Shown piece after piece: positions 3,586-34,674 of a stretch of DNA of 35,565 nucleotides. Positions within the stretch are counted from its first letter, which is position 1. Each line of letters opens with the position of its first letter. Source of the stretch: a virus (Duplodnaviria; Heunggongvirae; Uroviricota; Caudoviricetes); the IMG/VR virus record IMGVR_UViG_2541047908_000011, positions 1 through 35,565 of that record, one strand, 5' to 3'. Position numbers and translations under genes: made by a program. The notes under the pieces were generated by a model. That model worked only from the letters and a program-made list of their open reading frames with translations. It did not search any database and had not been told where the DNA came from.

Positions 3586-6500
3586 CCCGACGCGATGACT
3601 GCATAATTGACACAACCCTGCTGTCGATCAGATCCACCAGTCCCCTGGCTGAGCGCGCATCTATCTCGCCATTGCTCCCTTGATTCTGAATGCTGATGTG
3701 ATACACGGGAGAATAAACAAATCCACCGCCACCATTCACATTTCCAATGGCCCTGACCCCAAGAGAGCCGTCCGCTGCCCGTGTCAGTGGCATGATTGCT
3801 TCAGGCCCGGCCTCGCCCATCAACCCGGCACCTTTCGCAAAAGCAAAATACGTCGGTGTATCCACAATAGTGTTACTGTAAGCACTCAGATTTGCCGATG
3901 TGTAAACACCACCTTTTGCGTTTGCCACTGCCCCCGAAATCCATCCGCCGACCGTACCAAGCCACCCTCCGGCACCGGAGAGTGATTTCAGTCCGTTAAC
4001 AATGGCTGCATTCATCAGAATTTTTGAAACTTCCCGGAGAACTGAACTCCCCCAGTTCCTCCAGTCCACAACATTCCCGGCCAGTGCATCGGAAATATTT
4101 GATACCAGCCCGTCCATCGTGGAAACGACAGCATCTGCCGCCTGTGAAGCATAATCGGTGGCACTGTCTGCCCAGTTGGTCAGTCCCTCCTGGAGTCCGG
4201 CATTCCAGTTATTACGTAAAGCATCGGCCTTTGCATAATAATCCTGCTGATCACTGAGACGCTCTTCCAGATATTTTTTATTCAGTTCTTTCTCCTGTTT
4301 CCACAGGGCTTCTTCAATTTCTCCGGCCTGATACTGTCTCAGCAGCTCGTTATTTTTCTGCTCAAACGCCTGCCGGATACTCCACATTTCCTGGAGTCGT
4401 TCACGCATCCGTGAGCCTTCACCATATCCCAGCAACTGCGCTTCGTCAGATGCCCGGGCACTGGCATTACTGTCCGCCAGACTGCTCTCATACGCAGCAA
4501 GCTGCTCACGAATCTTTTTCTGGTCGATGAGTGCTGCATTCTGCAAAAGCGTTTTTTTCTGCGCTTCTGACAGGGTTGATAATTCGCCCTGACTGACCTG
4601 ATATTTCATCTTAGCCAGTTCAGTATTCTGCCCTGCCAGTGCTATTTGTTCTTTTTGCTGTTTAATCAGCCGTTTATAAATATCTTCTGTTTTTTCCGCT
4701 TCGGTCTTTTTATGCGCTTTGGGTTTATTTACCTGGTTATTTCGCCAGGCATCCAGTGAGGTATTGATATAATTCTGTCTGGCTGTCTGATACGCCTCTC
4801 CCACAAAGCCGAGATCATCCGCAGCATAACCCAAGCGGGCACGCTCACGGGCTTCCCCCTTCAGGCGGGACAGAGCCAGTTCGCGCTCGCTGTTATTCAG
4901 TGCGGTCTGCTGTTTATCATCCAGGGTTGCCTGTGGTAGCCGTAACGGTACATTCACCAGCCCCTGTCGCTGCTGAAGTAATTCATTACCGAGCCCGAGA
5001 AGGCGATTAAACTCGGTATGCTGCCCATTCATGATCAACAGGGACTGATACGCTTTGTTTTGTTCCGCGGCCTGTTGACGGATCAACGCCACCCGTCGCT
5101 CCTCCAGCCCGGCAAGCACATCCTGAATGGATTGCGCTTTGCCCTGCATTTGTGTGAGACGGGACTGTTCAACTGCCAGTTGATTTGTTGCTTCTGCAAG
5201 CCCTTCTGTGACAGTTTTTACCGACGTCATGTGGTTAATCATAAAACCGTTATCGGTTGTCCAGCCCGGGTTTGCCAGCACATACTGATAGCCAGCAATT
5301 TTTTCCTGTAAGGATTTAATCTTACTTTTCTGCTCGTCAATTAACCTGTTTTGCTCATCAAGTGCCTGCCGCGTCTTTTCCTCATTATCTGACGCTTCAG
5401 GAAGCGACATTGCCGACGTTTTCTGGCGAATTTCGTCGATTGTTGCGGCATACTGGCGTGCAGATTCTCTGGCCTGCTCCTGATTCTGATACATCGTGTA
5501 CCAGGCCGTCGCCCCCAGCATGACGAGTCCCGGCACACCACCAACCAACCCCAGCGCACCACTTAACAGACGACTCCCCACTGACGTGACAGTATTCAGC
5601 GTTGTCTGTGCCGCTGTTCTGGCCGCAATATTACGGGTAAGTGACGCCTGGGCAGCTGTCAGCTTCGCTTCTGCTGCGGCCTGCCTTTCGGTACCGCGAG
5701 CAGCAACAACCGCCTGTTGCGCACGATAAACCGCCGCACGCGCCCTGGCGGTTGCTATCTGTGTCCCCCGAAGTTGCGCTTCAGCAAGAGCCACTTCGTT
5801 TCTGGCTGCAGTAATTAATCCGGCAGTTGCAGATCCAGCAGACGACGCCATATTGCCAAAATATCGGGCTACCCCGACGGCAACCAGTGCGCCAGCTGCA
5901 GCAGCCACGGTATCAATATTGTCTGCAACACCATTCAACACCCCGGTGAGTGTCTTTGTCACTCCGCTTGCCTCGTTCGCACCACCAACCCAGGCCATAA
6001 AGGCGTTTTCAACTTTGGTTGCAGAGGATGAAACAGTATCAGGCATTGCTGCATATTCATCACGCAACGCCCCAAGCTGACTAATCAGTGCAGGAACAAC
6101 CTTATCGGCGGTCAGTTTTCCGTTATCCGCCATGGCCTTCAGATCCTTACGGGCAACACCCATTCCCGCAGCCAGCGCACGAATAACACGATCGCCGTTC
6201 TCATTCACAGAGTTAAATTCTTCACCGCGCAGCACTCCCTGCGCCAGTGCCTGACTGAACTGCGTGATCACCGAACTGGCTTCTGCTGTACTGGCACCGG
6301 ATAATTTCAGGCCCGTGGAGATCGCCTCGGTGACTTTCAGTACCTCCTCAGAACTGTAGCCATACTCCCGCATGGAAGCTGCAGAGCGGGCAAAAAGGCT
6401 GGCGTTATCAGAAAACGCCGTTCCCGTTCTCTGGCTGATTGCCATTAATTCACGTTGTGATACCTGAAAATCATCACTGGACTGTGAAGCCTGCTTCAGA

Positions 6501-22910: not shown

Positions 22911-23066
22911 TTACTCCTCAGGTTCGTAAGCTGTGAAGACAGCGACCTCCGTCTGGCCGGTTCGGATTCGTACCTCGCAGAGGTCTTTCCTCGTTACCAG
23001 TGCCGTCACTATGACGGTTAAACAGATGACGATCAGGGCGATTAACATCGCCTTTTGCTGCTTCAT
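22911..23066 (-). CDS. hokD: Hok/Gef-family type I toxin (HokD/RelF-like)
   Basis: 51-aa product MKQQKAMLIALIVICLTVIVTALVTRKDLCEVRIRTGQTEVAVFTAYEPEE: single TM helix plus conserved RK.LCE..R.....EVAAF-type tail. The in-frame upstream extension to 23123 may correspond to mok. Confidence 0.8.
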   Translation of the reverse strand: MKQQKAMLIALIVICLTVIVTALVTRKDLCEVRIRTGQTEVAVFTAYEPEE

Positions 23067-23303
23067 AGCCTGCTTCTCCTTGCCTTTCGGCGCGTAAGAG
23101 GCTAACCTAGATTTGCCGTTCATAGATTGAGCCTCAGATTAATGTTAAGCGTCTTGCCGGACGCGTAATGTTAACTGGGGCTTTTCTCTATCTGCCTTTC
23201 AGTGTTCATGCCTGAGACAGATAGCCTCAAGCACCCGCAGCCATTCTACTTAACTCACGTCACCTCGCCAATATGAAATCAATCAGAAAGGTGATCCATA
23301 AAA

Positions 23304-27905: not shown

Positions 27906-28307
27906 ATGATGAACGCCCTAGAAGTATCTATGTACAGAATCAGCAAGCTTCTTCAGGAAACTGGATGGAGCCAGGCTGAGCTTGCCCGTAGAATTGGTGT
28001 GACACAACAAACTGTTCAACAATGGGTCAGCGGTAAGGCTACACCTAAAGCCTCAAGTTTGGATAAACTGGTTGAGGTTACAGGGCATCCATTGCATTGG
28101 TTTTTATTGCCTCCTGAAGAGGGGGAGCAAATTTTCACCCCTGACACGATGAAAATTGGTCCTCGTCAACGCGAACTGCTCCAGGCTTTTAGTGCGTTTC
28201 CAGAGGAAGACCAAGAAAAAATGCTTCAAGAAATCAAAGACAAGAAAAAATCAATGGAAGAAACCATTGCCCGGTGGTTGGCGGCACAAAAAAGCCGCCG
28301 GGCGTGA
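27906..28307 (+). CDS. Prophage repressor-like HTH (XRE-family) regulator, PaaR-like; first gene of a three-gene operon with a ParE-type TA pair
   Basis: 133-aa ORF with HTH (WSQAELARRIGVTQQTVQQWVSG) and no S24 peptidase domain. Divergent from the cro-like gene. Confidence 0.65.
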   Translation: MMNALEVSMYRISKLLQETGWSQAELARRIGVTQQTVQQWVSGKATPKASSLDKLVEVTGHPLHWFLLPPEEGEQIFTPDTMKIGPRQRELLQAFSAFPEEDQEKMLQEIKDKKKSMEETIARWLAAQKSRRA

Positions 28308-28334
28308 CCACAGTACAAGAAGAGGAGTTATGCC

Positions 28335-28526
28335 ATGAGTACAGCCCTTTCTCCGATAGTTTCAGAATTCGAAACTACCGAACAAGAAAACAGTTACAAC
28401 GAATGGTTACGCGCTAAAGTGGCGTCAAGCCTTGCAGACCCTCGTCCCTCAATTCCACATGATGAGGTAATGGCTGAAATGGAGAATCTTATTGCTCAAA
28501 TTGCTGTAACTAACAGGAGCGAGTAA
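28335..28526 (+). CDS. Antitoxin (PaaA-like, 63 aa) of a ParE-family toxin
   Basis: 63-aa acidic ORF overlapping the toxin start by 1 nt (ATGA-type coupling). Confidence 0.6.
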   Translation: MSTALSPIVSEFETTEQENSYNEWLRAKVASSLADPRPSIPHDEVMAEMENLIAQIAVTNRSE

Positions 28527-28813
28527 TGTTACCCATTTTGTGGCTACCATCTGCTCGCGATGATTTGCGTCAGATCGTAGCCTATATTGCTAAGGAAAAT
28601 ATTCCTGCAGCACGCAGACTAAAAATACGGATTGAAACGTCTGTTTTAGCCCTCTCTGAGCATCCATATCTATATCCGCCAAGTGATCGAGTATCCGGTT
28701 TGCGGGAAATTGTGGTTCACCCTAATTATATCGTTTTGTACCGAGTAGCAACTTCAAGCATTGAAATTGCAAATATTGTGCATGCCCGCCGACAATTTCC
28801 CTTCCCTATCTGA
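28526..28813 (+). CDS. parE: RelE/ParE-family type II toxin
   Basis: 95-aa ORF, MLPILWLPSARDDLRQIVAYIA..., typical ParE N-terminus and size. Coupled to the upstream small antitoxin gene. Confidence 0.7.
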   Translation: MLPILWLPSARDDLRQIVAYIAKENIPAARRLKIRIETSVLALSEHPYLYPPSDRVSGLREIVVHPNYIVLYRVATSSIEIANIVHARRQFPFPI

Positions 28814-28830
28814 ACTGAACAATTTTCACA

Positions 28831-28855
28831 CTCCCTCATTCGAGGGAGTTTTTTT
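28831..28855 (+). terminator. Rho-independent terminator after the repressor-TA operon
   Basis: CTCCCTC-ATTC-GAGGGAG followed by TTTTTTT. Confidence 0.7.
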
Positions 28856-28867
28856 GCCCAACACAAC

Positions 28868-28902
28868 AATTAAAAACTGTTGACACAAAACAGTTTTTAA
28901 TT
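28868..28902. promoter_or_regulatory. Second operator-like palindrome (OL-like), same core as 27831-27869
   Basis: CAATTAAAAACTGTT, 7-nt spacer, AACAGTTTTTAATTG: perfect 15-bp arms, sharing the AAAAACTGT...ACAGTTTTT core. A TTGACA hexamer lies in the spacer. Confidence 0.5.
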
Positions 28903-29226
28903 GTAGATTATTTCCACTACCCACCCCGCCCCACAGAACGCAGGGCAATACTTCGAGTTACCCGGCAGTGGTCAGGGGTTAAGTAGCCAGCCCGAGGCGT
29001 AAGAACATGACGGCAGGGTTCAACTTTAATAACTATGCAGCAGGTTTTTGTTCCGCTACCCCGGCGTTAAGGGGAAACAGAGGATTTCTCAGTGGGCGAA
29101 GTCAAACATCAGAATGGAAGGCATCCCGGGATCGGCAAAGAAGCAGCAATGGCGCTTTATATTGACATCAGCGCCATTGCCGGACAGGTAAGAATTATCA
29201 GAGCGGTAACTAAGCGGTATGCGCCT

Positions 29227-29427
29227 TTACTTCAGAAAGTCTCTGGTGAGTGCACCGAAGATATTGTCAACGATTTCGTCATCAAACTGCGAGGACTCAT
29301 CTTCAGTTACAAGGTGACCACAATTTTTGCAGATGGCTCCCGCGAAACTGTCAGAGCCCTGCGGTTTAAAGGATGTGTCAAAGACTTCGCCACCACATTC
29401 TGGGCAAGAAAACTTGATTGTATTCAT
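29227..29427 (-). CDS. Small zinc-ribbon protein (CPEC...CKNC), antisense to the early-left operon
   Basis: 66-aa ORF with two CxxC pairs about 22 residues apart. Strong GAGGAA RBS 7 nt upstream of ATG 29427. Confidence 0.45.
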   Translation of the reverse strand: MNTIKFSCPECGGEVFDTSFKPQGSDSFAGAICKNCGHLVTEDESSQFDDEIVDNIFGALTRDFLK

Positions 29428-29519
29428 AACCAATTTCCTCTCGAGTAACAGACCCCTCAGAGGATACCACCTCGCCTGACGTGGTTAAAAGCAGGCAACG
29501 CTAACCACAAGGAGCCGAC

Positions 29520-29738
29520 ATGCAGAAACGAGAACCCGTCATCATCGCGCCAGACTATACCGATGATGAACTTTATGAGTGGATGCGCCAGAAAATTAAT
29601 GCAGCGCAGGATCTGAAATGGGCCAATGAAGCCAGGGCTAAGCAGGCTGAAAATCTGTCCGCTCTGGAGCAGGATATCACCAATCTGGAAAAAGCAGCGG
29701 CATTAAGCATTGCCAGAATGATTACATACCCGCGTTAA
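29520..29738 (+). CDS. Hypothetical early-left protein (72 aa, coiled-coil-like)
   Basis: AAGGAG RBS before the ATG. Orientation matches the early-left operon. Confidence 0.45.
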   Translation: MQKREPVIIAPDYTDDELYEWMRQKINAAQDLKWANEARAKQAENLSALEQDITNLEKAAALSIARMITYPR

Positions 29739-30305
29739 TAGCTAACCAACGAAGCTAAGGTTGGTAATTAAGGAGTTCTCCACGGGTGAGGTGGAGTGCG
29801 TGCGCCGGACACGGGTGAACATCCAGCACAGACAGTTTACTGAAAGGATATTTCCCTGAAAAGTCAGACCATAACGCGAAAGCGCACGGCGAGGTAGCTG
29901 GTTCATAGATAGCCTGTCGTTAAATTTTCGTCGACCGTGCGCTTCCGGTTGTGGCACTCCGCGAAATGGCGCGGCGGTAAGTATGGCGGGGTTATTCCTT
30001 CCCCGTTGAGGACACCGGGTTGTCAGGTTGACCATACGCTTAAGTGACAACCCCGCTGCAACGCCCTCTGTTATCAATTTTCTGGTGACGTTTGGCGGTA
30101 TCAGTTTTACTCCGTGACTGCTCTGCCGCCCTTTTTAAAGTGAATTTTGTGATGTGGTGAATGCGGCTGAGCGCACGCGGAACAGTTAAAACCAAAAACA
30201 GTGTTATGGGTGGATTCTCTGTATCCGGCGTTAATTGTTAACTGGTTAACGTCACCTGGAGGCACCAGGCACCGCATCACAAAATTCATTGTTGAGGACG
30301 CGATA

Positions 30306-30494
30306 ATGGAAACGTTATTACCAAACGTTAATACGTCTGAAGGTTGTTTTGAAATTGGTGTCACTATCAGTAACCCTGAATTTACTGAAGATGCCATTAA
30401 CAAGAGAAAACACGAACGGGAGTTATTAAATAAAATATGCATTGTTTCAATGCTGGCCCGTTTACGCCTGATGCAAAAAGGACGCTGGCAATGA
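30306..30494 (+). CDS. Hypothetical small protein (62 aa)
   Basis: GAGGA RBS. Translationally coupled (ATGA overlap) to the next ORF. Confidence 0.4.
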   Translation: METLLPNVNTSEGCFEIGVTISNPEFTEDAINKRKHERELLNKICIVSMLARLRLMQKGRWQ

Positions 30495-30694
30495 ATACTG
30501 CTGTTGCCCTCACTCTGACTGTTTTTCTTAATACTGGCGAACCTGTTGATGTGGTTACTGGTATATATGGTTCAATGAAAGAATGTATGGCTGCCGCAGC
30601 AGAACAGAAAATTCCTGGTAACTGTTATCCGGTCGAGAAAGTTATTCGCATGGATAATAACGAAATCCCGGCAGGATTAAAAACAGCGCCGTAA
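30491..30694 (+). CDS. Hypothetical small protein with N-terminal hydrophobic (signal/TM-like) segment
   Basis: 67-aa ORF, MNTAVALTLTVFL..., with AAGGA RBS. Confidence 0.45.
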   Translation: MNTAVALTLTVFLNTGEPVDVVTGIYGSMKECMAAAAEQKIPGNCYPVEKVIRMDNNEIPAGLKTAP

Positions 30695-34584: not shown

Positions 34585-34674
34585 TGGCGGAGAGAGGGGG
34601 ATTTGAACCCCCGGTGGAGTTGCCCCCACTCCGGTTTTCGAGACCGGTCCGTTCAGCCGCTCCGGCATCTCTCC
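34585..34674 (-). tRNA. serU: tRNA-Ser (anticodon CGA)
   Basis: Minus strand reads GGAGAGATGCCGGAGCGGCTGAACGGACCGGTCTCGAAAACCGGAGTGGGGGCAACTCCACCGGGGGTTCAAATCCCCCTCTCTCCGCCA: 90 nt with long variable arm and CCA end; anticodon loop CU-CGA-AA. Confidence 0.9.

Follow-up and report, generated by a model that had tools for sequence, protein, structure and literature searches.

What occupies the ORF-poor stretch between two small genes of the early-left operon of this prophage? Within the window, that is the whole stretch of 35,565 nucleotides that was analysed, a gap of 567 nt (29739-30305) extends from the end of the ydfC stop codon (29738) to the ATG of dicB (30306). The first-pass annotation had described about 560 bp with no convincing same-strand ORF between a 72-aa gene and the next small gene, and this description was confirmed, as the longest plus-strand ORFs within the gap encode 36, 32, 29 and 26 aa according to the ORF listing. 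The long ORF that it had reported, an antisense frame of 111 aa, was found at 29742-30077, and its inverted repeats, its GGGG...CCCC hairpin and its direct repeat were all located where it had placed them. The 72-aa gene is ydfC and the next small gene is dicB; had either of them been recognised, the locus would have been named. The gap, its borders and its landmarks are as follows:

29520-29738, plus strand: ydfC, 72 aa, the left border (ORF; annotated as "protein YdfC" in NZ_CP019273, a record with 100% identity, and in K-12)
29739-29867, plus strand: mosaic, variable start of the ydfC 3' UTR, containing the 9-nt direct repeat CACGGGTGA
29781-29789 and 29810-29818: the two copies of the direct repeat CACGGGTGA
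29869-29954, plus strand: stem A, long and interrupted, about 23 pairs, with core arms at 29877-29889 and 29935-29947 and a hypervariable apical part
29958-30078, plus strand: predicted body of the 190-nt DicF precursor, from stem A to DicF, including hairpins 29959-29974, 29986-30005 and 30017-30053
29959-29963 and 29970-29974: inverted repeat CCGCG/CGCGG
29988-29991 and 30001-30004: GGGG/CCCC repeat
30017-30025 and 30045-30053: perfect inverted repeat GGGTTGTCA/TGACAACCC
30079-30136, plus strand: dicF, the 53-nt DicF and its U-run (RF00039; identical to K-12 b1574)
30141-30288, plus strand: stem-B domain, 148 nt, closed by a 19-bp stem and holding four small hairpins
30306-30494, plus strand: dicB, a 62-aa cell division inhibitor (Pfam PF05358 DicB, E = 4e-39, full length)

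The Rfam scan, a check that the first-pass annotation had proposed, named DicF immediately. Family RF00039 matched positions 30080-30131 of the window on the plus strand with a score of 76.7 bits (gathering threshold of 48) and E = 2e-15, and the model was matched in full (positions 1-52 of 52). DicF was also the top match when the interval 29400-30500 was scanned by E-value. DicF proper corresponded to 30079-30131, with the seed in the single-stranded 5' part; the terminator hairpin (30094-30130, -15.9 kcal/mol) was followed by TTTTT at 30132-30136, as expected of the 3' end and Hfq-binding part of this sRNA. The segment 30079-30136 showed zero mismatches with K-12 b1574 and its U-run, the single-stranded regions that pair with the targets included. 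A simple terminator scan did not flag the dicF terminator, which is not evidence against it, as that scan does not allow for a loop and bulges as large as those of this hairpin. The annotated neighbours and the Pfam match of DicB placed DicF in the early operon of a lambdoid prophage, with ydfC upstream and dicB downstream. The Shine-Dalgarno sequence of dicB, GAGGA, was located at 30294-30298, and dicB was followed by a DUF1482/ydfD-like gene and then by a gene for an 823-aa exonuclease.

We estimate at about 95% the probability that we are dealing with the ydfC–dicF–dicB interval of a lambdoid prophage resembling Qin, and that this interval encodes the Hfq-dependent sRNA DicF, with the processing account given below. 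Its content, the dicF locus with its processing signals, has been known for a long time: dicF and its sRNA were reportedly described by Faubladier, Cam and Bouché in 1990, in the dicBF operon of the cryptic prophage Qin of E. coli K-12. The structured non-coding RNA or sRNA that had been envisaged for the gap was therefore the right kind of occupant, but the sRNA, at 30080-30131, lies outside every hairpin that had been cited in its favour.

The comparison with the Qin prophage of E. coli K-12 showed how closely the two loci correspond. The segment 29700-30320 differed at 14 of the 621 aligned positions, with zero differences in dicF, and the spacing was the same in both (ydfC, 340 nt, dicF (b1574), 174 nt, dicB). 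Two of the K-12 substitutions fell inside stems A and B, at 29887 and 30273, and both were wobble-compatible. K-12 Qin thus shares with the window an identical DicF, the upstream ydfC, the downstream dicB and ydfD-like DUF1482 genes, and both flanking stems. Homology to K-12 began only at ydfC, and beyond the shared block the window carries the intact 823-aa exonuclease gene in the place of the ydfE pseudogene and IS2 of K-12.

The 1.2 kb around the gap matched 4,753 of 5,426 complete E. coli genomes, the best match being the pig isolate E. coli 13P477T, with 100% identical DNA and flanking genes annotated as ydfC and dicB. Stx-converting and other lambdoid phages matched too, and one of these records bears the annotation "DicF antisense sRNA". 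In EHEC O157:H7 the same ydfC–dicF–dicB block was present with 96-98% identity, at as many as 10 sites in one genome; records of Stx2a- and Stx2c-converting phages likewise carry it, also with 96-98% identity. DicF was detected with 60.6 bits at 3644-3695 (minus strand) of a Salmonella enterica locus (L005), where homology was limited to approximately 30090-30136; the two flanking stems of the window are not shared by this locus, so the processing context differs. A near-identical E. coli-type dicF prophage was also observed in metagenome-assembled genomes labelled Veillonella parvula, Collinsella sp. and soil "Proteobacteria bacterium" (L007, L008 and L009), which are most likely cases of binning contamination.

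The folding energy of the gap was compared with that of shuffled sequences (100 shuffles for the whole gap and 200 for the segments). The whole gap (29739-30310) folded at -215.1 kcal/mol, below all 100 shuffles (z = -4.61), but the segment that holds the hairpins cited in the first-pass annotation (29958-30078) was at chance level, its -39.6 kcal/mol being equalled by 47 of the 200 shuffles (z = -0.62). The excess of structure came from two other places, both of which, like DicF itself, had been missed. The first is stem A: the segment 29868-29957 folded at -37.4 kcal/mol (z = -3.81), a value matched by 0 of 200 shuffles. The second, the stem-B domain (30141-30288), gave the strongest structural signal of the gap, with -60.6 kcal/mol and z = -6.39. 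Its closing stem is formed by a 19-nt inverted repeat, 95% complementary (30141-30159 and 30270-30288), and this repeat and that of stem A were the two strongest inverted repeats found in this region of the window. The DicF segment itself (30079-30140) had a z of -1.82.

Both stems were retained by RNAalifold in an alignment of 93 non-redundant sequences. In addition, RNAalifold offered an alternative in which GCGGCGG at 29971-29977 pairs with the 3' arm of the DicF terminator at 30122-30128. This pairing could represent a competing structure that weakens the terminator; it was set aside, since local folding and the Rfam model both gave the terminator hairpin. The heptamer GGCGGTA was seen twice, at 29973-29979 and in the 5' arm of the terminator (30094-30100), and a 7-mer repeat of this kind is within chance.

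Conservation was followed in two comparative sets, namely 93 non-redundant homologues, 85-99% identical, and 35 ydfC-dicF-dicB loci; a pattern search with the dicF core had brought up 8 loci in the species-representative genomes and another 120 in viral contigs. Homology to the window started at discrete breakpoints (29759, 29781, 29799, 29851-29859 and 29870), the first 120 nt or so after ydfC being mosaic. It covered dicF in all E. coli-type loci, some of which diverged again after stem B, near 30290. These breakpoints and the divergence near 30290 indicate that the portable unit is made of stem A, the precursor body, DicF and the stem-B domain. In the 35 loci, the proportion of variable columns was lowest of all segments in DicF (5%), followed by the precursor body 29958-30078 and the dicF–dicB spacer (10.7% each), ydfC (13%), the first part of the spacer 29739-29867 (18%), dicB (23%) and stem A (26%, mostly in the apical part). 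DicF and its neighbouring spacers were therefore less variable than the adjacent coding genes.

The arms of the stems were conserved in the 93 sequences. Several variants carry unrelated sequence in place of the apex of stem A and of positions 30185-30222 inside the stem-B domain. Unrelated sequence also took the place of the hairpin 29986-30005 in some loci. When the structure of the window was projected onto the 93 sequences, 96.5% of the pairs were standard, as compared to 32-43% when the partners were slid; the proportion of paired cells was 99.1% for stem B, approximately 95% for stem A and 99.8% for the DicF terminator hairpin. The changes were nearly all one-sided wobble changes, mostly of the U-G to C-G type, and two-sided changes occurred in nine pairs, mainly in small internal hairpins. 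In stem A, the pair count revealed one-sided changes only, and in the stem-B domain six pairs had wobble-type changes and one pair a two-sided change. As the structure came from one member of the set, the window, and the homologues are 85-99% identical, these counts show that the stems are maintained and not that they covary strongly, which is supportive and not decisive. The covariation analysis that had been suggested for this region gave conserved stems and wobble-compatible changes but few two-sided ones.

The position of the two stems can be compared with the published maturation of DicF. In K-12, DicF is excised from a polycistronic ydfABC-dicF-dicB-ydfD RNA driven by dicBp (PMC10448788, PMC5069750, PMC9438474; all three cite Faubladier et al. 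1990). RNase III makes the 5' end of a 190-nt DicF precursor (PMC10448788), the 53-nt DicF owes its 5' end to RNase E and its 3' end to the intrinsic terminator of dicF (PMC10448788, PMC5069750, PMC9438474), and on the read-through RNA an RNase III cut yields a 72-nt DicF (PMC5069750, PMC9438474). The sequence in Fig. S1 of PMC10448788 runs from the equivalent of 29893 through to DicF. Counting 190 nt back from the 3' end of DicF (30131-30136) led to 29942-29947, within the 3' arm of stem A, and counting 72 nt from 30079 led to 30150, within the 5' arm of stem B. Both stems, each of about two helical turns, were thus found where the published RNA lengths predict. Because the 190-nt and 72-nt lengths end there, we infer that the RNase III cleavage sites fall in stems A and B.

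We propose the following course of events, in which the present analysis supplies what the RNA is, which genes flank it and which conserved stems are predicted, and the K-12 literature supplies the pathway and the targets. The early-left operon would be transcribed into one long RNA, probably starting at a promoter-like site at 28880-28909. RNase III would cut stem A upstream of dicF, leaving a 190-nt precursor with its 5' end at approximately 29942-29947, and RNase E would trim this precursor to the 53-nt DicF, with the intrinsic terminator of dicF as its 3' end. On transcripts that continue past this terminator, RNase III would cut the 19-bp stem B at about 30150, which would yield the 72-nt DicF and release the dicB message from dicF. 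DicF would then pair with its target mRNAs and, together with the DicB protein, would block cell division. The targets reported in the K-12 literature are the ftsZ, manX, xylR and pykA mRNAs, to which pchA is added in EHEC, and DicF and the DicB protein are both inhibitors of cell division in K-12.

A comparable arrangement exists in the pL transcript of phage lambda, the N leader of which contains a long stem cut by RNase III. The likeness lies in an RNase III-cut long stem leading an early-left gene; the lambda N leader has no sequence relation to the dicB leader, and an effect on dicB translation is only putative here.

It is possible, although rather doubtful in our opinion, that the 30141-30288 domain is also a functional RNA in itself, either a distant early-operon relative of the STnc100/PasD type or a cis-acting, RNase III-operated switch that would set the DicB level once the terminator has been read through, by way of dicB translation or stability. 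Such a role would add to the DicF explanation and not replace it. The domain is the strongest structural signal of the gap (z = -6.39), the spacer that contains it is conserved beyond the dicB coding sequence (10.7% versus 23% of variable columns), and the 3' arm of stem B stops 5 nt short of the dicB Shine-Dalgarno. The STnc100 model (RF02076) aligned end to end with 30129-30338, with 38.7 bits and E = 1.2e-6 for the 1.1 kb searched, but this score is below the gathering threshold of 47, and at that threshold the Rfam scans returned no STnc100 match in the window or in 7 related loci, Salmonella and variant loci included. STnc100 and PasD resemble the domain in being multi-hairpin RNAs with a long closing stem borne by lambdoid prophages; according to a 2026 preprint, STnc100 is related to the PasD sRNAs of lambdoid prophages, located in the Q/lysis region. 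The context differs, as these RNAs are reported beside Q and the lysis genes whereas the stem-B domain belongs to the early-left operon, between dicF and dicB. Moreover, the published role in RNase III processing already accounts for a long conserved stem, and the replaced interior (30185-30222) speaks against such a role. Loci with an isrK/C4/antirepressor module instead of dicB still had the domain, and its retention in places lacking dicB suggests that it may have a role beyond that of a cleavage site. Structured, conserved and weakly STnc100-like, the dicF–dicB leader domain could justify a small look at dicB control.

Two further observations were made on this part of the locus. The segment 30129-30338 (plus strand) shares a CACCNGGAGGCACCNGGCACC hairpin with STnc100, with a compensatory change in the stem relative to the model consensus. 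In two viral loci (L056, 1184-2260, minus strand; L102, 4337-5650, plus strand), DicF and the stem-B domain were followed by isrK (RF01394), C4 (RF01695) and an antirepressor-like ORF. The presence of such modules instead of dicB indicates that the slot after DicF takes alternative modules, with a junction at the end of stem B, near 30290.

It is very unlikely that the gap hides a protein gene, be it the antisense 111-aa or 54-aa frame or a gene degraded by frameshifts. The latter was the case that the first-pass annotation itself had opposed to an RNA element, and it was looked for. In some records (e.g. WP_021522780.1), PGAP has a questionable minus-strand call in the gap, a "hypothetical protein" of 54 aa at the equivalent of 29742-29906, and a GTG frame of 10 codons follows an AAGGAG motif (29770-29775). 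Nevertheless the antisense ORF had no Pfam match, and the K-12 RefSeq annotation, which includes the small proteins from ribosome profiling, has nothing between ydfC and dicF. Indels also broke the candidate frames. A 1-nt insertion at 30002, present in 14 of the 35 loci, interrupts the 111-aa antisense frame and the 36-aa plus-strand ORF (29937-30047), and a 29-nt deletion at 29791, present in 2 of 35, falls within the 111-aa and 54-aa antisense frames and the 32-aa plus-strand ORF. The variable sites were distributed over the three codon phases as 21/20/18, without periodicity, a test of weak power since ydfC and dicB showed little periodicity too. The absence of a Pfam match, the frame-breaking indels and the lack of codon periodicity led us to reject a hidden or degraded gene. 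The 54-aa call overlies the mosaic and most exchangeable part of the gap. It is probably spurious, because the enclosing frame has no family match, the region is mosaic and the 29-nt deletion breaks the frame in 2 of 35 loci. The two copies of the direct repeat CACGGGTGA (29781-29818) are likewise 29 nt apart, and the repeat is for this reason better read as a substrate for slippage than as a signal.

That the gap carries an antitermination RNA replacing the N protein, either put-like as in HK022 or nut-like, is extremely improbable. No N-like gene had been noticed in the operon by the first-pass annotation, and the gap is a transcribed, hairpin-rich segment lying just 5' of an intrinsic terminator that must be read through for dicB to be expressed. 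However, the comparison of 29700-30340 with the HK022 genome and its putL and putR regions (blastn-short) returned only chance words of 7-9 nt, and a put-like RNA was rejected on this ground. A put RNA folds into two stem-loops that act on RNA polymerase, and no antitermination RNA family was found by Rfam in 29400-30500 at E up to 10. Allowing 3 mismatches, we counted 15 matches to the boxA consensus in the window for 10.6 expected, and none on the plus strand of the gap, so a nut/boxA element was rejected as well. The put sites of HK022 are promoter-proximal, whereas the gap starts about 830 nt past the nearest upstream plus-strand promoter-like site (28880-28909), and the hairpins on which the proposal of a put-like RNA had been built are no more stable than chance. 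A type I toxin-antitoxin locus in the gap, that is a small hydrophobic toxin with its antisense RNA, had been a further suggestion and is common in lambdoid prophages, this one having a sok RNA elsewhere, but its probability is negligible, and it was rejected, as the Rfam search of 29400-30500 yielded no type I antitoxin family even at E up to 10, no small ORF of either strand encodes a hydrophobic or transmembrane-like, hence toxin-like, peptide, and these ORFs are broken by indels in homologues.

The identification of dicF in the gap strikes it from the list of unexplained elements, and its value is mainly one of annotation. The NCBI automated annotation of the closest genomes does not include dicF, so the gap looks like an unexplained hole when no RNA scan is made. 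With dicF and its stems recognised, a known regulator of cell division and metabolism is assigned to the prophage.

Upstream of ydfC, two elements may mark the beginning of the operon:

28830-28849, plus strand: terminator-like hairpin with a T-run, after the ParE gene and ahead of the promoter-like site
28880-28909, plus strand: promoter-like TTGACA-18-TAGATT (consensus scan, 10 of 12 matches)

The TTGACA hexamer of the promoter-like site falls within a perfect palindrome of 16 bp (28866-28904). Judging from the consensus match, 28880-28909 is likely to be the early-left promoter/operator, equivalent to dicBp and driving ydfC-dicF-dicB, and we infer that this promoter would be the one used in this prophage. 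An HTH repressor-like gene (27906-28307, plus strand) lies opposite a cro-like gene of divergent orientation, and genes for a PaaA2 antitoxin and a ParE toxin come after it; the divergent repressor/cro layout was also present in an annotated relative (L132). The repressor-like, PaaA2 and ParE genes (27906-28813, plus strand) occupy the position of dicA in K-12 and resemble the three-gene paaR2-paaA2-parE2 arrangement; K-12 Qin differs in having no PaaA2/ParE pair after its repressor gene. A 68-aa Cys4 zinc-ribbon gene of the "ECs_2282 family" (29227-29433, minus strand) is found in the window where K-12 has ydfA and ydfB, and its transcript would be antisense to that of the operon. Outside the operon, a sok antitoxin RNA (RF01794, 110.6 bits) was detected at 23061-23236 on the minus strand, pointing to a type I toxin-antitoxin of the hok/sok type in another part of the prophage. 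Near the end of the window, a tRNA-Ser gene (anticodon CGA) at 34585-34674 on the minus strand is plausibly the attachment site of the prophage.
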